In this document: in pieces, positions 1,444 to 17,606 of the stretch | Numbering within the stretch: the stretch's first letter is position 1 | How the letters are laid out: every line of letters begins with the position of its first letter | Source of the DNA: a virus | Virus genome (UHGV): UHGV-0200089 | Length of the DNA: 17,850 bases | Strand: one strand, 5' to 3' | Made by a program: the position numbers and the translations under genes | Notes under the pieces: model-generated | Databases searched by the model: none | What the model saw: only the letters and a program-made list of their open reading frames with translations | Told to the model about the DNA's origin: nothing

Positions 1444-1662
1444 TTACATCCACATAATTTGCTGCCCTGACGGCAACGGGTGCGGCCTTACGGCGTGGAC
1501 TTCTCCCGGCTTCACGATGTATCTCTGTACCGACTCATAGGTGATGAACGTGGCGCTGCAATTCACGTTCTGACACTGGTGATAACGCTCTTTTGTCGTG
1601 TCAGTGATATAGCGACTTGTACGCGCATGTGCGGCATGCTGGCATAAAGGACAATGAAACAT
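1444..1662 (-). CDS. ogr: Ogr-type zinc-finger late-gene transcription activator (72 aa)
   Basis: Internal ATG at 1662-1660 gives MFHCPLCQHAAHARTSRYITDTTKERYHQCQNVNCSATF..., with CxxC...CxxxxC zinc-finger spacing, matching P2 Ogr as recalled. The 28-aa N-terminal extension in the ORF track is judged spurious. Confidence 0.88.
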   Translation of the reverse strand: MFHCPLCQHAAHARTSRYITDTTKERYHQCQNVNCSATFITYESVQRYIVKPGEVHAVRPHPLPSGQQIMWM

Positions 1663-1742
1663 CGCGAGCACCTCTTCCGGTTTTGTTGATGGTGCCATTT
1701 TAGTTAATTTATCCTTATAAAACAAACAGATAAAATAAAACA

Positions 1743-2906
1743 TCACTCATCATCTTCTGTTTCGTACTCCACATCAGAAAGCCTGACCTCAAGCTCCAAG
1801 GACGTCGTGAAGCCGCTATTATTCAGAAAATGTGTCACCTTAGTGATTGTCCAGTCCTGCTCGTCTATGACGCGCTTAAAGCCTGACACTTTGACCGGCG
1901 TTTCCGTGTAAATATCTGCCCGACCAGTGGCAAGGCTGATGGAGAACTCCGCAACGCCCCGTTGCAGTTTGTCCCACTTCGCCTGAGCGGCGCGCATGGC
2001 CTGCGCTTTCGTGGCATATACCGTGGTCAGGGCAAAAACGTTGTCAGCCTCACCGGCCATGTATTCACCTTCGCGCGCTTCCGGTACTTTTGGCTCTTTC
2101 TTCTGCGTGACCGGTTTCGCTTTCGGGTGCTCCAGTGCGCGCAGGTGTTTCTCTTTCTTTTTGCGTTTCAGTTTTACCTTCTGCTTTTGCGGCTTCGGGT
2201 CTTTGGTGTGTAACCACTTTGCCGTAACGCCGGTATAGGCTCCACGGTCAGCAATCGCAAAATGATGACGGTCGCCGTCGCTGCGGGTGATGGTGACCTG
2301 CGGGATTTTTTTACCGCTGGCCGTCACCCCCTGCCCCGCTTTGAGAAACAACAGTTTTCCCATTTTTACCGACACCTCACCGCCGTTGCGTTCTGCAAGA
2401 CGGGTCAGGAATTTCGCATCAGACTCCTGCGACTGGTCGATGTGCGGGATTTTAATTCCGGCCAGTGACGGAGCGACACTGGCCTCCAGCCTGTTACGGG
2501 TGGCTATCGCCTCAACAATCGCACCGAGCGTGGTGTCATGCCAGGAGCCTTCCCGGCGGGAATTGAGCGTCCCGCGGAAATCTGCACTCCGGGCGCGGAT
2601 GGTGACCACATCCGGTGCGCCCCGGTGTTCAACCTCATCAACGGTAAATTTCCCTTTGCATACCAGGGCAAAACCTTTCCAGCCGATATACACCGTCAGG
2701 ACAGCGCCACGAATCGGTAGCCCGACCTGCCCGTCGGCGTCGTTCAGTTCAATATCAAGCTGGTCAGCCTCAAAGCCCCGGTTATCCGTCAGGGTCATGC
2801 TCATCAGACGGTCGCTGATATTGCCGGTAATATCCCTGCTGTCGAGCATCAGCATGTAATCCGGCGTCAGCGTACTGCCTGCATCAAATGTCAGTGCATC
2901 CAGCAT
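1743..2906 (-). CDS. D: P2 gpD-like tail protein (387 aa)
   Basis: Full-length ORF with near-identity to P2 D as recalled (MLDALTFDAGSTLTPDYMLMLDSRDITGNISDRLMSMTLTDNRGFEADQLDIELND...). Its ATG overlaps the U stop as TAATG. Confidence 0.92.
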   Translation of the reverse strand: MLDALTFDAGSTLTPDYMLMLDSRDITGNISDRLMSMTLTDNRGFEADQLDIELNDADGQVGLPIRGAVLTVYIGWKGFALVCKGKFTVDEVEHRGAPDVVTIRARSADFRGTLNSRREGSWHDTTLGAIVEAIATRNRLEASVAPSLAGIKIPHIDQSQESDAKFLTRLAERNGGEVSVKMGKLLFLKAGQGVTASGKKIPQVTITRSDGDRHHFAIADRGAYTGVTAKWLHTKDPKPQKQKVKLKRKKKEKHLRALEHPKAKPVTQKKEPKVPEAREGEYMAGEADNVFALTTVYATKAQAMRAAQAKWDKLQRGVAEFSISLATGRADIYTETPVKVSGFKRVIDEQDWTITKVTHFLNNSGFTTSLELEVRLSDVEYETEDDE

Positions 2907-3385
2907 TATCCCGCCCCCGTCATACCCGTGAATCTGGTCGCCATACTGCCAGCCTTACCGATAAGCGATTCCGCCTGTTTACCGATATCGCCATAAAGCG
3001 CGGCCAGTGATTCATCAACGCGGGTGAGTGACAGCGTAAAATCAATTTTTCGGGGTGTGCCGTCTGCAAAGAAAATACTCCCTGTTTCATTCACCCTGCT
3101 GATGACATACATGCCGTAAATCATGCCGGTGCCATCCAGCAACGGCCACGCCCGGCCTTCCTCTGCCATCAGCCTGAGCGTGGTCATCGTCAGCTTGCCG
3201 CCGGTCAGTTCGGGATAAAGCACGCCGGCAAGCGTGATGTTTTCCTCACCCACACCGAGAAACTGAAAGGCATCCCGTTTACCGATACGGGAATTTGACG
3301 GCCAGCGATAATCTGATTCACGCTGCATGGTCTGGTGTGGCAGCGTCTGGCGCATAAAAACAAACATACCTAACGCGAGCATCAT
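2906..3385 (-). CDS. U: P2 gpU-like tail protein (159 aa)
   Basis: ORF beginning MMLALGMFVFMRQ..., lying between the T remnant and D as in P2. AGGAGG RBS (complement of 3394-3399) sits upstream of the ATG. Confidence 0.88.
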   Translation of the reverse strand: MMLALGMFVFMRQTLPHQTMQRESDYRWPSNSRIGKRDAFQFLGVGEENITLAGVLYPELTGGKLTMTTLRLMAEEGRAWPLLDGTGMIYGMYVISRVNETGSIFFADGTPRKIDFTLSLTRVDESLAALYGDIGKQAESLIGKAGSMATRFTGMTGAG

Positions 3386-3399
3386 TTTTCGTCACCTCC

Positions 3400-3681
3400 T
3401 TAACCGTCATGCATCATGCTGGCACGAGCGCGCGCACGTTTATCCCGCTCGTATTTTTCGAGCGCATCCTGTAACTGGCGGTCAAGCTGTGTCCCCGGCG
3501 CAGTACCACCCGTCAGGCTGATGTGATATTCGTTTTTACTCTGGTCCACATAAGAGCGGCCAGCCGGTGCCGTGACCGGCTGATAAGCCTGATAGCCTGC
3601 ATAAGAGCTGGTCGCCGGAATATAACCACCGGTGCCATACGTGGCGGCATGAGTTCTGGCGGCGGTCTGGTCAAGTGTGTC
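3400..3681 (-). pseudogene. T: C-terminal remnant of P2 gpT-like tail tape-measure gene (about 93 codons; upper boundary approximate)
   Basis: The frame ends in TAA at 3402-3400 just upstream of the U RBS, in the position T occupies in P2. The protein-like tail is ...YGTGGYIPATSSYAGYQAYQPVTAPAGRSYVDQSKNEYHISLTGG...EKYERDKRARARASMMHDG. Upstream of ~3690 the same frame reads antisense through the P remnant. Confidence 0.5.
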
Positions 3682-3684
3682 TGA

Positions 3685-3996
3685 CTCTTTGTTGATGACC
3701 CCGAGCTTTTCCAGTACACGCCGGAAATGAAAACCGCAATGGTGCTCAAGGCAAAAGACGTTATTCGCCGTGGCTGTCTGGAATATGACGTCAGCGCCAC
3801 CGACATCACCAGCTCGTTTATGGCTATCCGCAAGACCATGACCAGCAGCGGACGCAGCGCCACCTATGAGGCCAGCCGCAGCGAGGAAGCCAGCCACGCC
3901 GACCTCGCCTGGGCGACCATGCACGCTCTGTTAAATGAGCCACTCACCGCCGGTATCAGCACCCCGCTGACATCCACCATTCTGGAGTTTTACTGA
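3685..3996 (+). pseudogene. P: C-terminal remnant of P2 gpP-like terminase large subunit (5' boundary approximate)
   Basis: The frame opens after TGA at 3682-3684 and ends in TGA at 3994-3996, overlapping the Q start as TGATG, which is the P-then-Q arrangement of P2. Only ~100 codons remain, against ~590 for a full-length P. Confidence 0.5.
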
Positions 3997-5030
3997 TGAG
4001 CAAGAAAAAAGGGAAAACACCGCAACCTGCGGCAAAAACAATGACCGCCAGCGCCCCGAAAATGGAGGCATTCACCTTTGGTGATCCGGTGCCGGTACTC
4101 GACCGCCGTGACATTCTGGATTATGTCGAGTGCATCAGTAACGGCAGATGGTATGAGCCACCAGTCAGCTTTACCGGTCTGGCAAAAAGCCTGCGTGCTG
4201 CCGTGCATCACAGCTCACCGATTTACGTCAAACGCAATATTCTGGCCTCGACATTTATCCCGCATCCGTGGCTTTCCCAGCAGGATTTCAGCCGCTTTGT
4301 GCTGGATTTTCTGGTGTTCGGTAATGCGTTTCTGGAAAAGCGTTACAGCCCCACCGGTAAGGTCATCAGACTGGAAACCTCACCGGCAAAATATACCCGC
4401 CGTGGCGTGGAGGAGGATGTTTACTGGTGGGTGCCGTCCTTCAACGAGCCGACAGCCTTCGCGCCCGGTTCCGTGTTTCACCTGCTGGAGCCCGATATTA
4501 ATCAGGAGCTGTACGGCCTGCCGGAATATCTCAGCGCCCTTAACTCTGCCTGGCTGAATGAGTCGGCCACGCTGTTCCGCCGCAAGTATTACGAAAACGG
4601 CGCACATGCCGGATACATCATGTACGTTACCGATGCCGTGCAGGATCGCAACGATATCGAAATGCTTCGCGAAAACATGGTTAAGTCGAAAGGCCGCAAT
4701 AACTTTAAAAATCTGTTTCTCTATGCCCCACAGGGGAAAGCCGACGGCATTAAAATTATCCCGCTCAGTGAAGTGGCAACGAAGGACGATTTTTTTAATA
4801 TCAAAAAAGCCAGCGCCGCTGACCTGCTGGACGCGCATCGCATCCCCTTTCAGTTGATGGGGGGCAAGCCGGAGAACGTCGGGTCGCTGGGTGATATTGA
4901 GAAAGTGGCAAAGGTCTTTGTCCGCAATGAGCTTATCCCGTTACAGGACAGGATCCGCGAGATAAACGGCTGGCTCGGTCAGGAGGTCATCCGATTTAAA
5001 AACTACTCACTGGACACTGACAACGGCTGA
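3996..5030 (+). CDS. Q: P2 gpQ-like capsid portal protein (344 aa)
   Basis: Near-identity to P2 Q as recalled (MSKKKGKTPQPAAKTMTAS...AFTFGDPVPVLDRRDILDYVECISNGRWYEPPVSFTGLAKSLRAAVHHSSPIYVKRN...). GGAG RBS at 3984-3987; followed by a terminator and cos. Confidence 0.92.
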   Translation: MSKKKGKTPQPAAKTMTASAPKMEAFTFGDPVPVLDRRDILDYVECISNGRWYEPPVSFTGLAKSLRAAVHHSSPIYVKRNILASTFIPHPWLSQQDFSRFVLDFLVFGNAFLEKRYSPTGKVIRLETSPAKYTRRGVEEDVYWWVPSFNEPTAFAPGSVFHLLEPDINQELYGLPEYLSALNSAWLNESATLFRRKYYENGAHAGYIMYVTDAVQDRNDIEMLRENMVKSKGRNNFKNLFLYAPQGKADGIKIIPLSEVATKDDFFNIKKASAADLLDAHRIPFQLMGGKPENVGSLGDIEKVAKVFVRNELIPLQDRIREINGWLGQEVIRFKNYSLDTDNG

Positions 5031-5218: not shown

Positions 5219-5459
5219 CGCCCGCTTCATGGGGAGGTTTTAATGCAAACGCATCAGGAAGGGCAGACCTAGTCACATGTAGAATACGATAGCAATAAAA
5301 AAGTCTAATTAGAATGCAAATTGATGCAACTCTATGCCCTCCAAGAACTCCAAACCTGAAAGATTTATGTAAAACATAGTGTTCGTTTCACCAAAATACA
5401 TATAAACTACATTAAAATAGAAATTTGTCTCACCTATAAGCCATTTAGACAACAGATTA

Positions 5460-6623
5460 ATGAGGTTTGTATCACAAATGACCACAAACGAGATACTTTC
5501 GCAGCTTATCAGTCTTGGACTCAAAGGGGATAAAGTTGCTTTTGTTCGGCAGGCTTCGAAACTCGCGCGTTCCTATGATTCTATGGGGCTGCCTGAGCTT
5601 GCTTCAGCCATTAGAGGTAGTATTCAAGATAAAAACACGTTTAACTTGCAGAAAGTATCACGCAGTACATCACCTATTTTTGAACGTCTTGATACATTAC
5701 CTGTAGATAAAGAAACTAAATTTGATTTAGCAGACGTAACTCAACCGTCTTCTGAAATTCAACTCCCATTGTTGAAAGATAGCACTCTGAAAAAAATTAA
5801 AGAATTTTTGACTTTCACTGAACGAGCTAAAGAATTAAAGGATGCCGGTCTTGGCGTGACATCCTCTATGATTTTATATGGGCCACCAGGTTGTGGTAAA
5901 ACCTTGACATCAAAATATATTGCATCCTGTCTAAATTTACCGCTTCTTACTGCAAGATGTGACTCCTTAGTCTCATCATATCTGGGGTCTACTTCTAAAA
6001 ATATCAGGCAGCTATTTGAGTATGCAAGTAAAGCACCATGTGTTTTATTTCTAGATGAACTAGATTCTCTAGCAAAGGCTAGAGATGATCAGCATGAGTT
6101 AGGTGAACTGAAGAGGGTGGTGGTTTCTTTATTGCAAAATATTGACAATCTACCTGAAGAAACAATATTGATTGCTGCAAGTAATCATGAAAATCTTCTA
6201 GATAGCGCAGTTTGGAGGCGCTTTGAGTATAGAATATCTATTGGATTGCCTGATTTTGAAGTCAGAAAACAACTATTTGAACAATATTCAAACATAAAAG
6301 CTACATATGACGATTTTGTTGATGACCTTGCGGAAATATCATCAGGGCTAAACTGCTCATTTATAGAACAATGCTGCTTAAGATCTGAGCGACATGCTCT
6401 GGTTTACAATAATAAACAAATCGATACCCGATTTTTAGTCGAGGCTATCTTAGAAGCGAAGGGAGTTACATTTGATGAAGAAGATAATTTACTTATAAAG
6501 ATTGTGACCACTCTCAGAGAATACAATCCCAAAAGATTTACAATACGAAAGATAGCAAAAATACTAGGGCTTTCAAATGCTAAAGTGTCAAGGCTAACTA
6601 AGAACTATAGAGAGATATTATGA
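5460..6623 (+). CDS. AAA+ ATPase with C-terminal HTH-like segment (387 aa); cargo gene 1 of an IetAS-like pair
   Basis: Walker A 'GPPGCGKT', Walker B 'VLFLDELD', and a sensor/arginine region 'SNHENLLDSAVWRRFEYRISIGLPD'. The C-terminal 'FTIRKIAKILGLSNAKVSRLTKNY' looks like a helix-turn-helix. The stop overlaps the next gene's start as ATGA. Start could instead be ATG 5478, which has a GAGG ~12 nt upstream. Confidence 0.85.
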   Translation: MRFVSQMTTNEILSQLISLGLKGDKVAFVRQASKLARSYDSMGLPELASAIRGSIQDKNTFNLQKVSRSTSPIFERLDTLPVDKETKFDLADVTQPSSEIQLPLLKDSTLKKIKEFLTFTERAKELKDAGLGVTSSMILYGPPGCGKTLTSKYIASCLNLPLLTARCDSLVSSYLGSTSKNIRQLFEYASKAPCVLFLDELDSLAKARDDQHELGELKRVVVSLLQNIDNLPEETILIAASNHENLLDSAVWRRFEYRISIGLPDFEVRKQLFEQYSNIKATYDDFVDDLAEISSGLNCSFIEQCCLRSERHALVYNNKQIDTRFLVEAILEAKGVTFDEEDNLLIKIVTTLREYNPKRFTIRKIAKILGLSNAKVSRLTKNYREIL

Positions 6624-8884
6624 GTAACAAAGAAAGACCAATAAAAATAATTGAGGCGACACCTCAAGATTTTACTGAAAAAACATATAATTTCGGAAAG
6701 AAACAACCTATCCGAACAGTAACAACTAGTCTAAAAAATAGACTCAAACAAGAAGTCGATGACGTTAAAAATTTTTTCCAGAGCTCATTTAAAAAATGGC
6801 CCAATATACCGGCGGTGGCTAGAGTTACTCTTCATGAAAAAGCTCTTGCTAAGTCACATCGCCCATCAAGCCTATTAGGTGATAATACATGTCCCGTAAT
6901 AGGCAGTGATAATTTTGGAGAATTACTTATAAGTGTTACTGAAAAAGGGTTAGCACAACTTCGCAAAAAAATTGAAAATAGCACTAATTCTCATAATGGG
7001 ACAGTACATATTGCTGTAATTGAAAAGATCGAACCTTTTAGTCTTAACCATGATGTTATAGATAAAAATAAATCAGATAGTTTTCTTCTGAAACTCTTTG
7101 ACCATAAAGATAGAACAACTAACCGCAGTATCGACAAAGAATTAATGGAATTTGCAGATGAACTAGGAATACAAAAACCCAAAAAGTATGATATCAGTTC
7201 AGATTTGAGTATATATGAAGTAAAAGGGAATGATAACATCGCCCAACTGGCAAGTTTTATTGGCATACGAAAATTAGAACCTATGCCAACATTTGGTCTT
7301 ACTCATACAGTATCGCAATATATTCCTGCTGAAACTCTAGACCTAGATGATTTTCCCTTACCTCAAGAGGATAAACATTATCCACTACTCGGAATTATAG
7401 ATAGCGGAGTCGATCCCAATAACAACATACTTAGGCCATGGATTTGGGATAGTTTAGATTTAGTAAAAGGAGAACACGACTATTCTCATGGGAACATGGT
7501 TGCAAGTTTAGCAATTAATGGAAGATGGTTGAATAACTATGCTGGTTTTCCTCAATGCCAAGCTGAAATTGTTGATGTTGCAGCCTTTCCCAAAGATGGT
7601 ACGCTCAAATTGCCACAATTAATGAAAGCTATCCGAGAGGCTGTGACCACCTATCCAGAAGTACGTGTATGGAATCTGTCATTAGGTTGTCAATCCCCAT
7701 GTTCTGAAGACAGCTTCTCTGAATTGGGGCATTTTTTAAATGCACTTCATGATGAGCATGATTGTCTTTTCGTCGTAGCATCCGGCAACTACATTTATGA
7801 TCCTCAACGAACCTGGCCTCCTCAAGAATTAGGTGGGCATGACAGAATATCAGCCCCCGCAGATTCTGTTCGTTCATTAACTGTTGGCTCAGTTGCCCAT
7901 TTAGAATCGTCTGACTCTGTGGTCAAAAGATTTGAACCTTCATCTTTTTCTAGAAGAGGTCCCGGCCCAGCCTTTATACCCAAACCAGAGATAAATCACT
8001 TTGGAGGTAATTGTGACAGTAAATTAAACTGTGAACATACCGGAATCATAGCTATTGGCGAGGACAATGCTCTTTGCGAAAGTATTGGCACAAGTTTATC
8101 AGCACCGTTAATCTCAAGTTTAGCGGCATCACTGTGGCATGAACTAGATGTTAATGGTTCTATTTCACCATCGCCTGAACGTATCAAGGCACTATTAATT
8201 CATTCTGCGTTAAAAAACTCACCAGCCAAAACGGAGCATTATGCGTTTAATTATCAAGGATTTGGACGCCCAAGCGATCATATAAATGATATTATTGGTT
8301 GCAATAAAAATGAGATTACATTTCTATTTGAAATAGATACCCGAGAAGGTATTGAATTCAGTAGAACGCCATTTGTAATACCACAGTCATTACGTACTGA
8401 GGATGGAAAATTCACAGGTGAAATTATTATGACACTCGTTTATTCTCCACCGCTTGATTATGACTACCCATCTGAATATTGCCGTTCTAATGTGGATGTG
8501 TCATTCGGGACTTACACTTATGATCCAGTTAACGCTAAATGGATACATAGCGGAAAAATTCCACAAATAAAAGAAAAGAGTGAATTATTTGAAAAGGTAC
8601 TGATAGAAAATGGCTTCAAATGGTCTCCAGTCAAAGTTTATAGAAAACAATTTCCGCAAGGTATAAATGGGGAGCAATGGAGACTTAAACTTGATGTTCA
8701 GAGACGAGCAGAGCAAGAGCCTCTATCTTCACCTCAACGTGCTGTATTGGCTATTACGTTAAGATCTCTTGCCAATTCTACTACAGTCTACAACGAAGCC
8801 GAGGTTGAAATAAATAATCTTGGTTGGAAAGAAACTGATATTGTTGTTCGTGAACAACCAAAAATCAGGATTCGTCAAAAATAA
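6620..8884 (+). CDS. Subtilisin-like (S8) serine peptidase with N- and C-terminal extra domains (754 aa); cargo gene 2
   Basis: S8 catalytic motifs in canonical order: Asp 'LLGIIDSGVD', His 'DYSHGNMVASLA', oxyanion Asn 'FVVASGNY', Ser 'GTSLSAPLISS'. AT-rich coding sequence; translationally coupled to the ATPase. Confidence 0.85.
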   Translation: MSNKERPIKIIEATPQDFTEKTYNFGKKQPIRTVTTSLKNRLKQEVDDVKNFFQSSFKKWPNIPAVARVTLHEKALAKSHRPSSLLGDNTCPVIGSDNFGELLISVTEKGLAQLRKKIENSTNSHNGTVHIAVIEKIEPFSLNHDVIDKNKSDSFLLKLFDHKDRTTNRSIDKELMEFADELGIQKPKKYDISSDLSIYEVKGNDNIAQLASFIGIRKLEPMPTFGLTHTVSQYIPAETLDLDDFPLPQEDKHYPLLGIIDSGVDPNNNILRPWIWDSLDLVKGEHDYSHGNMVASLAINGRWLNNYAGFPQCQAEIVDVAAFPKDGTLKLPQLMKAIREAVTTYPEVRVWNLSLGCQSPCSEDSFSELGHFLNALHDEHDCLFVVASGNYIYDPQRTWPPQELGGHDRISAPADSVRSLTVGSVAHLESSDSVVKRFEPSSFSRRGPGPAFIPKPEINHFGGNCDSKLNCEHTGIIAIGEDNALCESIGTSLSAPLISSLAASLWHELDVNGSISPSPERIKALLIHSALKNSPAKTEHYAFNYQGFGRPSDHINDIIGCNKNEITFLFEIDTREGIEFSRTPFVIPQSLRTEDGKFTGEIIMTLVYSPPLDYDYPSEYCRSNVDVSFGTYTYDPVNAKWIHSGKIPQIKEKSELFEKVLIENGFKWSPVKVYRKQFPQGINGEQWRLKLDVQRRAEQEPLSSPQRAVLAITLRSLANSTTVYNEAEVEINNLGWKETDIVVREQPKIRIRQK

Positions 8885-8889
8885 GCATT

Positions 8890-8914
8890 ATGGTCACCTT
8901 TTATAGGTGACCAT
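8890..8914. terminator. Perfect 9-bp palindromic hairpin between the two convergent cargo operons
   Basis: ATGGTCACC ttttata GGTGACCAT, located between the S8 stop (8884) and the membrane-protein stop (8918). U-tracts are weak on both sides, so termination efficiency is uncertain. Confidence 0.5.
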
Positions 8915-8917
8915 TTA

Positions 8918-9679
8918 CTACACCTTATTATTTTCAACTATTTTATGAATATCCATATCAAACCAAGAAACTTGCGAAATTTCTTTTAGTGGAAAGATGA
9001 TACTAGTATCAGCATCCTCAAGCTCTCTATATTCATTCACCAAGATTACTTTCAATGAATCCTTATCTCTATACCCAGAGATAATAGGATAGATTGAAAC
9101 ATACTGGTTAGGTCCTTCTTTCTCGTTAGGCTCACCTAATGCGTTAACAATTCCTACATATGTCTTTTTATTTTGCAACGTAATAAGTATTGAACGTCTA
9201 TCAACTAACGAATCAAAAAATATTTCATCCATTGGATTATCATTAATAAGCTCTTGCCTCATCCTTAGCATGACAAGATTCTCATAATCAATATTGGCAG
9301 CCTTTACCCCTTGGATATAATTTATAATTTTAGCTCTATATATAACCAAATATCTAGCACCGACACTCCATATCCAAGCCAAAAATATCGTTCCACATGA
9401 AAGTAAAATCATCCATCCTATGATTCTTTCAGTACCATTGTCACTAAGTTTGAGATCTAATTGTTCCCGAACCATCGTGACAGGATGGAAGCTCGGACAT
9501 ATCCATTTTATTAAGTAAGCTATAATCAATGTCCATATAAAACACCACAGACCAAAGGCGGCTGACTTCATATATAACAACTGCCCATCATAACGGTGTA
9601 ATCTATAGAAATGATAAGGATGAGTGGTTAATACAATATAACCACTCACAAGTAATGGAATAATTAATAAAGCAAACAT
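8918..9679 (-). CDS. Uncharacterised membrane protein (253 aa), three predicted N-terminal TM helices plus a ~140-aa soluble C-terminal domain; cargo gene
   Basis: Hydrophobic segments FALLIIPLLVSGYIVLTT, AAFGLWCFIWTLIIAYLIKWI and IIGWMILLSCGTIFLAWIWSV. The ATG lies 2 nt after the upstream gene's TAA. AT-rich. No family recognised. Confidence 0.7.
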   Translation of the reverse strand: MFALLIIPLLVSGYIVLTTHPYHFYRLHRYDGQLLYMKSAAFGLWCFIWTLIIAYLIKWICPSFHPVTMVREQLDLKLSDNGTERIIGWMILLSCGTIFLAWIWSVGARYLVIYRAKIINYIQGVKAANIDYENLVMLRMRQELINDNPMDEIFFDSLVDRRSILITLQNKKTYVGIVNALGEPNEKEGPNQYVSIYPIISGYRDKDSLKVILVNEYRELEDADTSIIFPLKEISQVSWFDMDIHKIVENNKV

Positions 9680-9681
9680 TA

Positions 9682-9918
9682 TTAATTCCCTTTAGCCATT
9701 TTTTCTTCTTGCTTTACCTGCTCAGAAACTATTTTTCTTGCTTTAATTTTCATCAATTTTACTGTATCTGAGCTTGCCAAGTCTTCTTTAGACGTGATAA
9801 TCGCGCCTCGACCTACCACCTCAACAGTGTTTGTTCCAGATGCTTCAAGCCTCCTCGCCAGTTCTCTTTCCTTTTCAATAGCAGCTTTACCTATAATACG
9901 TTCAAATATATTCATCAT
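9682..9918 (-). CDS. Uncharacterised small charged protein (78 aa), first gene of the minus-strand cargo operon
   Basis: GGAGG RBS 4 nt upstream of the ATG (complement of 9916-9918). Lys/Glu-rich, predicted helical. Tightly coupled to the downstream membrane-protein gene. Confidence 0.6.
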   Translation of the reverse strand: MMNIFERIIGKAAIEKERELARRLEASGTNTVEVVGRGAIITSKEDLASSDTVKLMKIKARKIVSEQVKQEEKMAKGN

Positions 9919-10009
9919 TTAACCTCCACTTGATTGATGCCAAGATAGTAATCACCTCCTCACAATATCTTACCAACCTAACAACTAACAGAACACTGTG
10001 TATAAGTCC

Positions 10010-10037
10010 AGTATAGTTTAATTAATAAATTAGGCAA
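10010..10037 (-). promoter_or_regulatory. Candidate sigma70 promoter for the minus-strand cargo operon
   Basis: On the minus strand: TTGCCT, 16-nt spacer, TATACT, about 90 nt upstream of the 9918 start. Sequence-only prediction. Confidence 0.3.
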
Positions 10038-10226
10038 ATCTATCAAAATGGTATTTTGTTAAAAATTCAGCTAACTCTGAGGTTGGTAAAACAGTCCACC
10101 AGATGTATCGCTAAAGCACTTAGAAACCACTATAACCATCCTAAGTGTACCAGTCAGTCTGTTTGTCTAATCGCATCACTATGCTCGTTATTCTATCCCC
10201 CGCCAATCCTGAGCTGGCTGCGTTCT

Positions 10227-10433
10227 CTATCGTCTGCGTGGTGGCGGTGCAGCGCTGGGCTGACCGATATAGTTAAGCCATACGTAATTATCCCGGACTA
10301 TTTCGGCACACCCGACCAGCTCATCGGGCGTCAGATTTTCGTTGACCATAATCTGCTGTAGACGGTGAACAATGGCCATCAGCTTGATATTTTTAGTTTT
10401 ATGCTGCGGTATCTCGCCTGGTATTCTGTGCAT
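10227..10433 (-). CDS. Hypothetical small protein (68 aa) downstream of the ASCH-like gene
   Basis: ATG at 10433-10431 overlaps the upstream TAA as TAATG; the translation ...ENLTPDELVGCAEIVRDNYVWLNYIGQ... looks protein-like. It competes with an overlapping plus-strand ORF at 10056-10361. Confidence 0.3.
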   Translation of the reverse strand: MHRIPGEIPQHKTKNIKLMAIVHRLQQIMVNENLTPDELVGCAEIVRDNYVWLNYIGQPSAAPPPRRR

Positions 10434-10888
10434 TATCCAAGCCACCCGTTTTGCTGTGCACGCTCCACCTGTTCATCTGAATAGTTCCATATCCCATCCG
10501 CACCAACCACTGCCCCGCCAGACATCCCCGTCTCTGGTTCATACACAACAGCAAGGCCGAGCTGATGCATAATTTCATGATTAATTCTGAATACCAGACC
10601 ACGCTCACTAAGTTCTTTCCAGTTCACAAACTCATATGCGCCTGTATTAAGCAGCTCAATACTTAGCAAGACATAATCTTCCAGCCAGTCTGACAAGTCA
10701 GTAACATCTGTTATCCGGGCTTCAACCTTTCGCCCCGTATACACACCCTGCACCCATTCATGCAAAATCAACGTGTCCCCGCGCTCATAATTACGGTCAT
10801 TTTTCCGAAACTCTGCGCGTTTCTTTCCTTCCAGCACAAGGTCAAAATATTTTGCGTGCAGCTTTACCTCGTGAATTTTTGCCATCAT
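10433..10888 (-). CDS. ASCH/PUA-like domain protein (151 aa) in the P2 'orf91' position
   Basis: From the first ATG (10888-10886), which overlaps the gene A stop as ATGA: MMAKIHEVKLHAKYFDLVLEGKKRAEFRKNDRNYERGDTLILHEW... resembles the ASCH/DUF3850 fold signature. The C-terminal region contains 'INHEIMHQLG' (an HExxH). The track's longer GTG-initiated version is rejected. Confidence 0.72.
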   Translation of the reverse strand: MMAKIHEVKLHAKYFDLVLEGKKRAEFRKNDRNYERGDTLILHEWVQGVYTGRKVEARITDVTDLSDWLEDYVLLSIELLNTGAYEFVNWKELSERGLVFRINHEIMHQLGLAVVYEPETGMSGGAVVGADGIWNYSDEQVERAQQNGWLG

Positions 10889-13170
10889 TTCCACTCCATT
10901 ACTGTTGAGAATCCCGGCCACTCATCAGCGACCGGATACGTGAATTTTTTCCCGTCATAATTTACGGTCGCGCCACGCGCCAGCGCCTCAAGCTCCCATC
11001 GCTGCGGCCTGATACCGTTCTGAGCAAGGTCAACGCGGATACGGGTAATTTGCATTCTTTCCGACCGGGTCAGTCTGGCCGATGGTGCAATTTCATGTGG
11101 TTTTAACGGGCTTCCGTTTCTTTGCTGACGGTTTGGCGTTCTCAGGTCGTGTTTTAATGCACCCCTGAGCGCCCTCACGACCTCCGGTTCATTCCATTCA
11201 ATAACACCGTCATCAACCAGATTAAGCACTGCTGCGGCGTGCTCAGAAGGTGTGGGAGCCGGTAACGAAGTATCACCACCGGTGAGCTTTCCACAGTTAT
11301 TGACAGGACTCCGAGGCGCGGCGATGCCGCTTTTTAAAGTCAAAGGCTCAACGACCGGAACTTTCGGCACAATGCGCCAGTCCGTCGTTCTGGTGATATG
11401 AATATGACGCGCGCCGAGATGCGGCGCGTAAATGCCGACCACTCTCTCGACTTCTTCCTCGTATTCGTTAACGTCATCCGACGGGCTACGGGCGACCCTG
11501 ACAGTCTGACAATCGCGCGGGACATTTGCCCCGCCCTGCGCGCTGATATACAACGCAAAATCGCCACTGTCTGCGGCGGCGCGTGCAGCCTCCACGCGTT
11601 CGTCAAATTCATCAGCAATGCTGACGCCGCGAGGCAATTTACGTAGCTCACGGTAAGCTCCCATTGTCGGCAGGCCAACCGTTTTAAATTGCGGGATGCG
11701 CCACGTTGACGCCCATGCGGTAACAGCCGCCGCAGTATCTTTCAGCGGTCTGCCGGTATCGTTATCGAGCTGACCATCCAGTGCATAGCCGTCGATATTT
11801 TTTGAAATGTATTTCGCGATATATCCCGCAGCACCGCCCCGGTTAAGGTGTTTTGCCTGAAAACGGTTTCGCGCGGCTCCTCTTTCGTCGCCATCCTCTT
11901 TGAGCGCATAGCGGCGCATGATTTCGATAATCTGGTTACGCTGGCGTGGATTACAAAAAAGCATCATATGCCAGTGCGGCGTTCCGTCGTGGTGTGGCTC
12001 GACGACTCGCAAACCGTAGACCTGTAAATCATTATCCTTGAATGCCGTGCGCATCAGGCTCCAGATACGGCAGAGATAACGCTGCGCATCCTTTGGATTA
12101 AATGCCTCATCATTCCAGCCGTGATTAAGCTGGACGGTTTTATTTTCGCCTTTTCCAACCTGACGTGTCGGGTGATACTTTGACGGCGCGGTCAGCGTGA
12201 TAAACATCCCCACATCACCCTCTGAGGCGGCGTAACGCTCAATACCGGCAATGGTGTTCATCAGCTCCATCCGGCGAATTTCAGGATTAGAAATACTGCC
12301 CATCACCTTACTGATAAGGTCGATGCGCTCGCCGGTTTCCCTGTTTTCAAGGTCACACGATTTAAGAAATTCCAGATTTGCCTGGCGGCGCGCACGCACA
12401 TCACGAATGGCATGTTTACTGGCATAAGGTGAACGGTCTTTATTGACCTCCCCGACAGCTATCAGTAACGCCTCATGCCAGCGCATACGCTGGCCTTTAA
12501 GCTGATGAGTCCACCACTCATCGTTAAACAGACGGGCAATGGCAGAATATGCCTGCCTCGTGGTCATCTGCCCTTTACGGTATTTGTTCCAGTAGAGAGG
12601 GGAAATATTGAAAGCACGTGCAGCGCCAGCAACATGACCATAGAGGTGAGCCTGCGCCTCATCCGTAAACAGCGATTCTTTTTCGCCATGTGCATCCACC
12701 CAGGCATCGCTGAGTTCCTCATACATCATGAAAAGCTGCGATGAGATACGGGCAGCAAACTTTTTCAGCTCCTTGTCATTCATTCCCGGCAGGCGCGCAT
12801 AGTGGTCACGCTCTGCCAGAAACAGTAACGACGCGTCGGTGTTCATTTCATGGCGCTGATTCACACGCTCAATGCGCGGCCATAAACGACGCTGAAAAGT
12901 GGATGTGAGGAAATAAAACCCGTGCACCGGGCTTTTATTGCGCCGGATGTAGTCATAGCGTGAAGTAAACAGCGAGCGCAAAAAGTAAGGCAGGCGGTTA
13001 ATCGTGGATAAAACACCTTGCACCTGACGCATCTCGTCACGTGTAAGAGGTCTTTCGCGCCCGACAGCCTCGCGTGGCGCGTTCCATGCATAAGCACCGG
13101 TAAACGCCTTACCGGTGCCTGCGGCAAATGCTGACGGAGGGACAAAACGCCCGGAGGCTTTAACGGCCAT
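10885..13170 (-). CDS. A: P2 gpA-like rolling-circle replication initiation endonuclease (761 aa)
   Basis: From ATG 13170-13168 the protein begins MAVKASGRFVPPSAFAAGTGK... and carries the tyrosine motif 'YIAKYISKNIDGY'. Length and sequence match P2 A as recalled. The track's start at 13212 is a TTG extension. Confidence 0.92.
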   Translation of the reverse strand: MAVKASGRFVPPSAFAAGTGKAFTGAYAWNAPREAVGRERPLTRDEMRQVQGVLSTINRLPYFLRSLFTSRYDYIRRNKSPVHGFYFLTSTFQRRLWPRIERVNQRHEMNTDASLLFLAERDHYARLPGMNDKELKKFAARISSQLFMMYEELSDAWVDAHGEKESLFTDEAQAHLYGHVAGAARAFNISPLYWNKYRKGQMTTRQAYSAIARLFNDEWWTHQLKGQRMRWHEALLIAVGEVNKDRSPYASKHAIRDVRARRQANLEFLKSCDLENRETGERIDLISKVMGSISNPEIRRMELMNTIAGIERYAASEGDVGMFITLTAPSKYHPTRQVGKGENKTVQLNHGWNDEAFNPKDAQRYLCRIWSLMRTAFKDNDLQVYGLRVVEPHHDGTPHWHMMLFCNPRQRNQIIEIMRRYALKEDGDERGAARNRFQAKHLNRGGAAGYIAKYISKNIDGYALDGQLDNDTGRPLKDTAAAVTAWASTWRIPQFKTVGLPTMGAYRELRKLPRGVSIADEFDERVEAARAAADSGDFALYISAQGGANVPRDCQTVRVARSPSDDVNEYEEEVERVVGIYAPHLGARHIHITRTTDWRIVPKVPVVEPLTLKSGIAAPRSPVNNCGKLTGGDTSLPAPTPSEHAAAVLNLVDDGVIEWNEPEVVRALRGALKHDLRTPNRQQRNGSPLKPHEIAPSARLTRSERMQITRIRVDLAQNGIRPQRWELEALARGATVNYDGKKFTYPVADEWPGFSTVMEWK

Positions 13171-13435
13171 ATGAGCCAAAAGCCTCAGAACAACGCTTGC
13201 TGAGTTGCTCAACCTGCGCGTTTAAATCAGCAAAAGACTTTGCGCTTCCGGTCAGAATATCGTGATGCATCAGGCCGGAAACGAGCTGGCTTAATTTCGG
13301 GTAATAACCAACCACCGCCAGCCATTCCTGACCGGCGTTTTTACCGCTTTCCGCTCTCTTTTTCTCGTGGAGAATAAACTGAAAGCTGTCACTGGTAACG
13401 ACATAACGTTCGCCAATTTCGATACGAATACTCAT
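13160..13435 (-). CDS. Small early-operon protein (91 aa), P2 orf83 position
   Basis: ATG overlaps the upstream stop as ATGA; ends 8 nt before the gene A start. Assigned by synteny with P2. Confidence 0.7.
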   Translation of the reverse strand: MSIRIEIGERYVVTSDSFQFILHEKKRAESGKNAGQEWLAVVGYYPKLSQLVSGLMHHDILTGSAKSFADLNAQVEQLSKRCSEAFGSYGR

Positions 13436-16808: not shown

Positions 16809-17606
16809 ATGAGTAATTTAACTAATTGTAATACAACAGAAAATACCGCTACGGCGGGGGCTACCAAGTCAGTTATTGGTCGCATTCACTCCTTTGAATC
16901 CTGTGGAACCGTAGACGGCCCAGGTATTCGCTTTATCACCTTTTTCCAGGGCTGCCTGATGCGCTGCCTGTATTGTCATAACCGCGACACCTGGGACACG
17001 CATGGCGGTAAAGAAGTTACCGTTGAAGATTTGATGAAGGAAGTGGTGACCTATCGCCACTTTATGAACGCTTCCGGCGGCGGCGTTACCGCATCCGGCG
17101 GTGAAGCAATCCTGCAAGCTGAGTTTGTTCGTGACTGGTTCCGCGCCTGCAAAAAAGAAGGCATTCATACCTGTCTGGACACCAACGGTTTTGTTCGTCG
17201 TTACGATCCGGTGATTGATGAACTGCTGGAAGTAACCGACCTGGTAATGCTCGATCTCAAACAGATGAACGACGAGATCCACCAAAATCTGGTTGGAGTT
17301 TCCAACCACCGCACGCTGGAGTTCGCTAAATATCTGGCGAACAAAAATGTGAAGGTGTGGATCCGCTACGTTGTTGTCCCAGGCTGGTCTGACGATGACG
17401 ATTCAGCGCATCGCCTCGGTGAATTTACCCGTGATATGGGCAACGTTGAGAAAATCGAGCTTCTCCCCTACCACGAGCTGGGCAAACACAAATGGGTGGC
17501 AATGGGTGAAGAGTACAAACTCGACGGTGTTAAACCACCGAAGAAAGAGACCATGGAACGCGTGAAAGGCATTCTTGAGCAGTACGGTCATAAGGTAATG
17601 TTCTAA
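16809..17606 (+). CDS. pflA: Pyruvate formate-lyase activating enzyme (radical SAM) with a prophage-derived 20-aa N-terminal extension replacing the native start
   Basis: From 16869 the translation is [40 protein letters not shown]..., i.e. E. coli PflA with the radical-SAM CxxxCxxC cluster. The only in-frame ATG upstream of the cluster is 16809, inside phage-arm sequence, with a weak GAAG RBS. Confidence 0.88.
16868..16880. repeat. attR core, direct repeat GTCAGTTATTGGT
   Basis: Identical to 1318-1330. It corresponds to codons 1-5 of native pflA, except that the native ATG is replaced by AAG here (A at 16866-16867). Confidence 0.8.

Follow-up and report, generated by a model that had tools for sequence, protein, structure and literature searches.

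A paired small-protein and membrane-protein module in the cargo slot of a P2-like prophage is a candidate phage defense system

The immediate neighbor of the locus described here is a known system, IetAS, which Gao et al. are said to have reported in 2020 as a combination of an AAA ATPase (IetA) and an S8 protease (IetS). A 2026 paper treats IetS as a protease toxin and IetA as its ATPase antitoxin, acting against phage by an unknown mechanism (PMC13069673). The slot that holds both also has a precedent, as Rousset et al. (2022) described a cos-proximal hotspot in P2 (PMC9122126). Here, we analyzed the virus genome UHGV-0200089, a stretch of 17,850 nucleotides (nt) that we call the window and that holds a P2-like prophage in an Escherichia coli segment. 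The cargo between genes A and Q of this prophage is the hotspot of Rousset et al. (PMC9122126), and beside IetAS it includes an operon of two genes (the pair) that encode a small charged protein of 78 amino acids (aa) and a 253-aa protein with three predicted transmembrane (TM) helices. We tentatively read the pair as an autonomous prophage cargo module that shields the lysogen, either by excluding phages or by abortive infection, and we regard it as a good but unproven candidate for phage defense.

The features of the two genes, both on the minus strand, and of their products are as follows (TM segments from hydropathy; hairpin strands from an AlphaFold2 [AF2] model).

9682-9918, minus strand: small partner gene, an open reading frame (ORF) of 78 aa (77 aa if read from the second ATG at 9915)
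8918-9679, minus strand: large gene, an ORF of 253 aa; predicted to encode, in order, three TM helices, a linker of helices and an Sm-like barrel in the cytoplasm
9923-9927, minus strand: Shine-Dalgarno sequence GGAGG of the small gene, read from the sequence
10037-10010, minus strand: candidate sigma-70 promoter TTGCCT-16-TATACT, weak (9 of 12 consensus positions)
9793-9825, minus strand: conserved beta-hairpin core of the small protein, aa 32-42 (VEVVGRGAIIT), with strands at aa 32-36 and 39-42
9356-9679, minus strand: membrane region of the large protein (TM1 to TM3 and cytoplasmic loop 1)
9623-9679, minus strand: TM1, aa 1-19
9566-9604, minus strand: cytoplasmic loop 1, aa 26-38 (RLHRYDGQLLYMK), the most conserved stretch of the large protein
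9500-9565, minus strand: TM2, aa 39-60
9356-9424, minus strand: TM3, aa 86-108
8960-9235, minus strand: predicted cytoplasmic Sm-like (Hfq/LSm/WYL-type) domain, aa 149-240, with the motifs KxYVG, EPNExxGP, SGYRDKD and SWF

An earlier note, made from the letters of the window alone, had outlined this operon, and most of the outline holds. The two ORFs lie at the coordinates it gave, with a stop-start gap of 2 nt between them, and the GGAGG that it named as the ribosome binding site is present. Its sigma-70 promoter stands only in part: a candidate can be pointed to, while promoter-like sites are not enriched in the region (10 found versus 6.6 ± 2.8 in shuffled sequences). It had called the small protein charged and helical, and counting from the translation gives 10 K, 10 E, 6 R and 2 D in 78 residues; it had given the large protein three N-terminal TM helices and a soluble domain of ~140 aa, and hydropathy yields three segments and a soluble C-terminal part of ~145 aa. 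Structure prediction, which the note had proposed as a check, was run with AF2 and returned an Sm-like barrel for the large protein and a mostly helical small protein built as helix, hairpin and helices.

Spacing bears on where the small gene starts. The GGAGG lies 7 nt from the second ATG (9915) and only 4 nt from the first (9918), so the second may be the true start, and 77-aa versions of the small protein are present in databases. Nucleotide homology with the corresponding cassette of Citrobacter youngae extends to 10061 and ends there; the promoter candidate therefore falls within the conserved unit, and the cargo boundary is placed at that position. Compared with the C. youngae copies (79% nucleotide identity), the ratio of nonsynonymous to synonymous substitution rates (dN/dS) is 0.07 for the small gene and 0.054 for the large gene. 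These low ratios, together with conservation of the pair across phyla, show that both ORFs are real genes under selection.

The two genes form an obligate pair. Directly upstream of nearly every homologue of the large gene lies a small ORF of 59 to 93 aa, at a spacing of −4 to +21 nt in most of the >40 loci. The pair was seen in Gamma-, Beta- and Alphaproteobacteria, in Legionella and in the spirochaete Turneriella, and homologues from Acidobacteria and Flavobacterium keep the architecture of three TM helices plus barrel and are preceded by a small ORF of similar pattern. Searching 1.84 billion representative sequences with a profile of the large family retrieved 2,626 clusters (50% identity) at E ≤ 1e-3 and 1,286 at E ≤ 1e-10.

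For the small protein, AF2 (53 sequences; predicted local distance difference test [pLDDT], 75.8) gives a helix, a beta-hairpin, a short helix and a long helix, in this order. Conservation is centered on the hairpin: across the 53 sequences, G38 is invariant and V34, V35, G36 and R37 are at least 90% conserved, and the family motif reads [RK]VVGRG[TA]-x-x-[IV]D...E[VI]...F...A..IV. Neither the Pfam scan nor the fold search recognized an antitoxin DNA-binding fold in it.

The large protein is predicted to have its N terminus outside and its C terminus inside the cell, with a cytoplasmic C-terminal domain. This topology follows from the positive-inside pattern of the TM-flanking loops, whose net charges average +2.1, −0.3 and +2.2 over 49 homologues, and AF2 agrees with it. 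Rousset et al. list a Phobius call of a signal peptide plus two TM helices for the same protein (PMC9122126). In the AF2 model made from the 49 homologues (pLDDT, 80.9), three TM helices are seen; TM3 runs on into the cytoplasm to residue 122 and is followed by helices at 132-145 and 149-160 and by a barrel of five to six strands at 164-239. The top Foldseek matches are all spliceosomal small nuclear ribonucleoprotein (snRNP)/LSm entries (E ~1.5e-3), and the modeled C-terminal domain has the hallmarks of the Sm-like fold, namely an N-terminal helix followed by a strongly bent five-stranded beta-barrel. On this model, the domain is of the Sm/Hfq/WYL-like type. Residues P8, S12, G13, L27, G32, Q33, L35, Y36, K38, G43 and S94 are invariant, and conservation peaks in TM1 (P8, S12 and G13), in loop 1 (RLHRYDGQLLYMK) and in the barrel motifs. 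The motifs KxYVG, EPNExxGP, SGYRDKD and SWF would map to the loops around the nucleotide pockets of Sm/Hfq rings.

These features suggest how the pair might work. Sm, Hfq and LSm domains typically form 6- or 7-membered, nucleic-acid-binding rings, which is why we suppose that the large protein oligomerizes through its Sm-like domain into a ring. Such a ring would bundle 18 to 21 TM helices into a gated pore or a membrane-perturbing assembly. WYL relatives of the Sm fold serve in ligand sensing in defense regulators; in the large protein, the barrel loops or cytoplasmic loop 1 may be the sensing site. The small protein, which would be made first and translationally coupled to the large one, might bind it through the invariant VVGRG hairpin and hold it inactive, as an antitoxin or a gate; alternatively, the small protein could be the sensor. 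Infection would then open the assembly, by way of either a phage product or loss of the small protein, and the open assembly would collapse the membrane potential or block phage DNA entry or development.

The surroundings of the pair in the window are listed below, with IetAS included.

12-1124: 3′ end of a formate acetyltransferase gene, which from its translation we take to be pflB
1444-3924, minus strand: ogr, D, U and a C-terminal fragment of T (prophage backbone)
3996-5030, plus strand: portal gene Q
~5300-10000: AT-rich cargo block, with a GC content of 32-39% versus ~51-58% in the P2 backbone
5460-6623, plus strand: IetA (PADLOC, 9e-132)
6620-8884, plus strand: IetS, an S8 protease (PADLOC, 1e-273)
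8890-8914, no strand assigned: hairpin found by sequence scan, a perfect 10-bp inverted repeat, ATGGTCACCT / AGGTGACCAT, with a 5-nt loop
10433-10921: orf91-like DUF3850/ASCH gene
10885-13212: gene A, with cox, C and int beyond it
16809-17606: pflA, which with the pflB 3′ end bounds the P2-like prophage

The setting is as the earlier note had described it, namely an AT-rich module in the P2 slot, convergent with an ATPase/protease pair. The module region itself has a GC content of 32 to 36%, compared with about 51 to 58% in the P2 backbone, and the convergent genes are IetAS (5460-8884, plus strand). The hairpin at 8890-8914 separates the stop codons of the convergent IetS and 253-aa genes and, from its sequence, is probably a bidirectional terminator shared by the two operons. 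The prophage is a defective remnant in which the defense cargo has been retained. Portal gene Q abuts the C-terminal T fragment (3400-3924), and genes P to T are missing; E. coli DCE7 carries the same prophage beside pflA with terminase and capsid genes still present, so the window copy has lost P to T. The Rfam scan of the whole window gave no match to an RNA element.

On the other side of the pair, a gap of ~510 bp (9919-10432) separates the small gene from the orf91-like gene, and RefSeq places in it a hypothetical gene of 68 aa (10227-10433, minus strand), directly after the DUF3850 gene. The 162-aa orf91-like protein is a fusion of DUF3850/ASCH and DUF7415, its gene shares 37 nt with the 3′ end of gene A, and the P2 reference orf91 resembles it over the N-terminal part only.

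Neither protein belongs to a family that the databases recognize by function, in agreement with the earlier note, which knew of none. Pfam has no match to either protein and none beyond noise among 49 homologues; the sole NCBIfam match is STM3941_fam, at 16 bits against a cutoff of 40. PADLOC-DB v2.0.0, with its PDC candidates included, has no match to either protein at E ≤ 1, nor to homologues from three phages, and a search with 49 family members gave one marginal match (E, 0.0024). Nothing significant was retrieved from the PDB chains searched with the family profile, and the DefensePredictor supplements hold no match to the pair. In PHROGs, the small protein is a full-length match to phrog_37504 (3.2e-53 over 1-78) and the large protein to phrog_3630 (3.3e-86 over 1-252), both annotated as of unknown function, and RefSeq lists the pair as hypothetical proteins (WP_000457800.1 and WP_021570510.1). 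The note's description of the pair as previously undescribed needs qualifying. The identical pair is “system #57” in Table S5B of Rousset et al., with 75 occurrences in 18,150 P2 hotspot loci, and it is absent from the validated and additional cloned systems of their Table S2 (PMC9122126). The window's IetAS did not turn up in Table S5B, within a listing in which long sequences are cut short. Literature searches by accession, PHROG identifier and “Sm-like” terms gave no later description. The pair is therefore already catalogued, in Table S5B and in PHROGs, but no characterization of it was found. The Sm-like domain, the universal small partner, the persistent linkage to IetAS and a second protease partnership (below) are new findings that go beyond the earlier note.

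In Enterobacterales and Vibrionaceae, the pair is usually cargo of a prophage, plasmid or island. Without IetAS, it occupies the A-Q hotspot of further P2/186-like elements (SEN5, a Yersinia prophage and a Klebsiella phage); in the Klebsiella P2-like phage, it is followed by a TIR-domain gene that matches the PADLOC bSEFIR model. Lambdoid prophages of E. coli and Klebsiella and Cronobacter phage phiES15 carry a stand-alone pair directly after int, at the att end, and 1,851 collection blocks are indexed for the E. coli variant next to int (P0032). Other positions are nin or lysis regions, an accessory region of a Providencia prophage and an AlpA island of Serratia. In a Plesiomonas lambdoid prophage, the pair lies together with AntA and a 139-aa ORF inside the lysis cassette (locus L085, 3356-7411), the insertion point being between the endolysin gene and a DUF2514 spanin-like gene. 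On an IncC plasmid, it is flanked by a RecD-like helicase (PADLOC PDC-S68 models) and a DNA methyltransferase, and the tblastn search gave homologues on a total of 26 Salmonella plasmid records. An MmeI-type enzyme is also among the defense neighbors.

Pseudomonas phages carry the pair at the genome end, followed by a conserved third gene of 164 aa that may be a lineage-specific third component. This gene is shared by a Pseudomonas phage and Pseudomonas pseudonitroreducens (L002, 777-1271; L038, 8814-9305), where the products are 65% identical, and it has no Pfam or PADLOC match.

The association with IetAS is confined to one clade and is persistent there. In the clade nearest to the window (large proteins ≥54% identical), the pair is convergent with IetAS in six of seven dereplicated cases, the exception being a disrupted copy in an Arsenophonus endosymbiont. 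The linked cases are the following.

P2-like prophages: E. coli (the window) and C. youngae
186-like prophage: Yersinia enterocolitica
Island with a gene A remnant: Salmonella/Citrobacter
Rac-like lambdoid prophage: E. coli
Pectobacterium locus, with an insertion sequence (IS)-type transposase gene alongside

Percent identities to the window for the small protein, the large protein, IetS and IetA are 90/87/91/85, 72/76/78/65, 52/59/63/55, 54/55/60/55 and 54/56/60/56. Judging from these values, the pair and IetAS have diverged together in this clade, across several distinct mobile elements. Among 5,426 complete E. coli genomes, the pair was present in all 15 that carry the window's IetS clade, 12 of the copies being near-identical and 3 having 67% nucleotide identity. 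The window's IetA and IetS score below the NCBIfam equivalog cutoffs for IteA (387 versus 510 bits) and IteS (782 versus 900 bits) and hence form a divergent IetAS subfamily, and IetS matches a dedicated PADLOC IetS submodel from end to end. It is this distinct subfamily that is always accompanied by the two-gene module; the more distant IetAS loci examined, at 44% identity (a Dongshaea plasmid) and 34% (the canonical iteAS of E. coli CT282), lack the pair. Behind the four-gene cassette of the Rac-like E. coli prophage comes a gene for a Hok/Gef family toxin (L069, 9496-9621).

A second protease accompanies the pair in marine Gammaproteobacteria. Photobacterium, Pseudoalteromonas and Shewanella each encode a ClpP-like SDH serine protease right next to the pair and divergent from it, and the SDH proteases of the three genera are 55 to 63% identical to each other. 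The cassettes stand in different mobile contexts, among them a lambdoid prophage of Photobacterium and an integrase island of Pseudoalteromonas with an IetA-like double AAA ATPase.

L074/L075, 4160-6903: SDH protease plus pair
L023, 5554-7801: SDH protease plus pair
L037, 6299-9005: SDH protease plus pair

Just after the hairpin, seven of the eight protease-linked small proteins (loci L016, L019, L023, L028, L037, L069 and L074 and the window, where the motif is at aa 47-50) have the sequence [LI]ASS, compared with none of eight stand-alone ones, in a sample that is small and phylogenetically nonindependent. The motif could be a recognition or cleavage site or a phylogenetic coincidence.

Where the pair is found favors a role in defense or exclusion, as it recurs in accessory slots, on IncC plasmids, on islands and beside defense genes, and a core life-cycle function is argued against by its absence from most members of each phage type. 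Three of the eight further P2-hotspot systems assayed were active, as was the AC1 system (PMC9122126), and six of eight randomly picked P4 loci of unknown function gave protection (bioRxiv 10.64898/2026.02.27.708500). An autonomous cargo module that excludes phages or aborts infection is thus the account we prefer, with less than even confidence. Several observations weigh against it. By a machine-learning estimate, 15 to 32% of P2 proteins of unknown function are antiviral (bioRxiv 10.64898/2026.02.27.708500). No report of toxicity or of a phage phenotype for the pair was found in the literature, and the structure search with the small protein returned no informative fold match. The pair of Pseudomonas luteola, P. 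asuensis and P. duriflava has a single, conserved chromosomal setting, free of mobile-element genes (L031, L033, L035 and L077 to L081: ANTAR regulator, CHASE3-GAF-GGDEF protein, pair, MFS transporter and PP2C-kinase), which suggests vertical inheritance in that clade. The 124 flanking ORFs of distant loci, scanned with Pfam and PADLOC, are heterogeneous and mostly ordinary genes, with no clear defense-island signal. The guess of the earlier note, abortive infection or superinfection exclusion, accordingly draws support from the mobile slots and defense neighbors and loses some to the Pseudomonas clade and the distant neighbors; we consider it plausible. The same Pseudomonas context and ordinary neighbors, as well as the spread over several phyla, would fit a non-defense moron or housekeeping gene, such as one that acts on the envelope or in membrane stress, one that times lysis or regulates DNA entry in the phage's own cycle, or one for another lysogenic-conversion trait. 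The Plesiomonas pair, placed in the lysis cassette between endolysin/AntA genes and the spanin-like DUF2514 gene, and the int-proximal slot of CPS-53-like prophages, generally known to be used elsewhere for O-antigen modification genes, point the same way. We nevertheless think such a role unlikely, as the predicted cytoplasmic C-terminal domain is hard to reconcile with surface modification and the pair recurs in dedicated defense hotspots beside defense genes.

For the window locus, the main rival is functional coupling to a protease partner, namely IetAS here and, in marine Gammaproteobacteria, the ClpP-like SDH enzyme. Proteolysis of the inhibitory small protein, or of the linker in the large one, would fire the membrane effector in the way that proteases fire bacterial gasdermins, or the pair would regulate the protease toxin. 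The complete linkage in the 15 E. coli genomes and the parallel divergence of the four proteins speak for coupling, and the convergent arrangement, which recurs in Pectobacterium as well as in P2-like, 186-like and Rac-like prophages, has lasted although hotspot cargo is reported to be swapped very fast. The recurrence of a protease partner in three further genera, with an IetA-like AAA ATPase in Pseudoalteromonas, and the [LI]ASS motif add to this, the motif with the limits of its sample. Yet the pair and the protease belong to different operons, arranged convergently or divergently, most pairs are found on their own without a protease close by, distant IetAS loci do without the pair, the literature treats IetAS as a two-gene system, and the linkage could be mere co-transfer of two adjacent defense cassettes. 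Coupling is in our estimate somewhat improbable, if still the alternative to reckon with at this locus, and its most specific form, in which a membrane-tethered Sm-like ring is shut by the hairpin protein and freed by infection-activated IetS or SDH protease, is rather doubtful. Distinctly improbable is an addiction module that merely stabilizes the prophage, plasmid or island through a membrane toxin and a labile small antitoxin, with no specific anti-phage role. A coupled operon with the small gene upstream and the large gene downstream resembles antitoxin-toxin operons, and the type II toxin-antitoxin layout is present here (small gene upstream, 2-nt gap). The broad scatter over prophages, IncC plasmids and islands, retention in a P2 remnant that has lost P to T, and neighbors such as the Hok/Gef gene and IetAS, the latter first described as a plasmid-stabilizing toxin-antitoxin system, also suit addiction; a small protein that lacks a known antitoxin DNA-binding fold and stable vertical inheritance in the Pseudomonas clade, which an addiction module does not need, do not. 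This alternative overlaps with the cargo module that we prefer, as many toxin-antitoxin-like modules also defend against phage.

If the defense reading is true, it would add a widespread family, with ~2,600 clusters at 50% identity in several phyla. The pair is found in P2/186 hotspots and also in the int-att slot of a prophage type that is very common in E. coli, so it may influence how susceptible many clinical and veterinary isolates are to phages. Linkage to two serine-protease partners offers a way into how IetAS might act. Should the protease-gated form prove right, the window's IetAS clade would gain its missing killing mechanism, and the large protein would represent a new effector class with protease partners in some lineages and none in most.

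In presumed function, the pair resembles RexAB-type prophage abortive-infection pairs and possibly protease-fired membrane effectors such as gasdermins. The 2TM+1TM+TIR, Hydrolase+3TM and gop-beta-cII systems of Rousset et al. are likewise small operons of the P2/P4 cos-proximal hotspot whose TM proteins are proposed as effectors, whereas the operon of the pair has no TIR or hydrolase partner. Profiles of both pair proteins score ≤8.5 bits against the membrane components of the Rousset systems. As a separate observation, the sequences in Table S2 for the 3HP, Hydrolase+3TM, Peptidase+TM and RexAB-like systems show no similarity to the pair, and identity with Rst 2TM+1TM+TIR was rejected, the Klebsiella TIR gene being of the bSEFIR model and the AC1 TM proteins matching neither profile. 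RexAB, too, is prophage encoded and presumably expressed in the lysogen, and it joins a soluble partner to a polytopic inner-membrane protein thought to collapse the membrane potential. It differs in that RexB has four TM helices and no soluble domain and RexA has ~280 aa, whereas the pair has a tiny soluble partner and an Sm-like domain on its membrane protein; the profiles score <1 bit against a RexB-like protein (−0.6 with the A1 profile), with no RexAB match in Pfam or PADLOC.

IetAS is the immediate convergent neighbor, and in the nearest clade it has co-diverged and moved between elements with the pair. It differs in that most pairs occur without IetAS and more distant IetAS without the pair, and neither the small nor the large protein matches the IetA or IetS model or has a domain in common with them. 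Gasdermins with their proteases offer a possible analogy for the IetS and SDH clades, since there too a membrane-active effector is genetically linked to a protease, of the serine or cysteine type. The large protein, by contrast, has no gasdermin fold and is already an integral membrane protein before any activation; effector and protease are encoded by separate operons, and cleavage is hypothetical.

In architecture, the large protein recalls the MscS-type mechanosensitive channels, in which a ring oligomer forms the pore: three TM helices, predicted to run from an outer N terminus to an inner C terminus, are followed by a small cytoplasmic beta-barrel. It does not, however, show the combination of MS_channel (PF00924) signature and MscS-like beta domain that marks the MscS family. 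Its C-terminal domain has no sequence-level match to Pfam LSM, Hfq or WYL, and a membrane-anchored Sm-like domain with an obligatory mini-partner is a design that was not found in the literature searched. The Sm, Hfq and LSm proteins and the WYL proteins BrxR, CapW and DriD carry the domain free or fused to a DNA-binding domain, whereas in the large protein the predicted barrel is tethered to the membrane.

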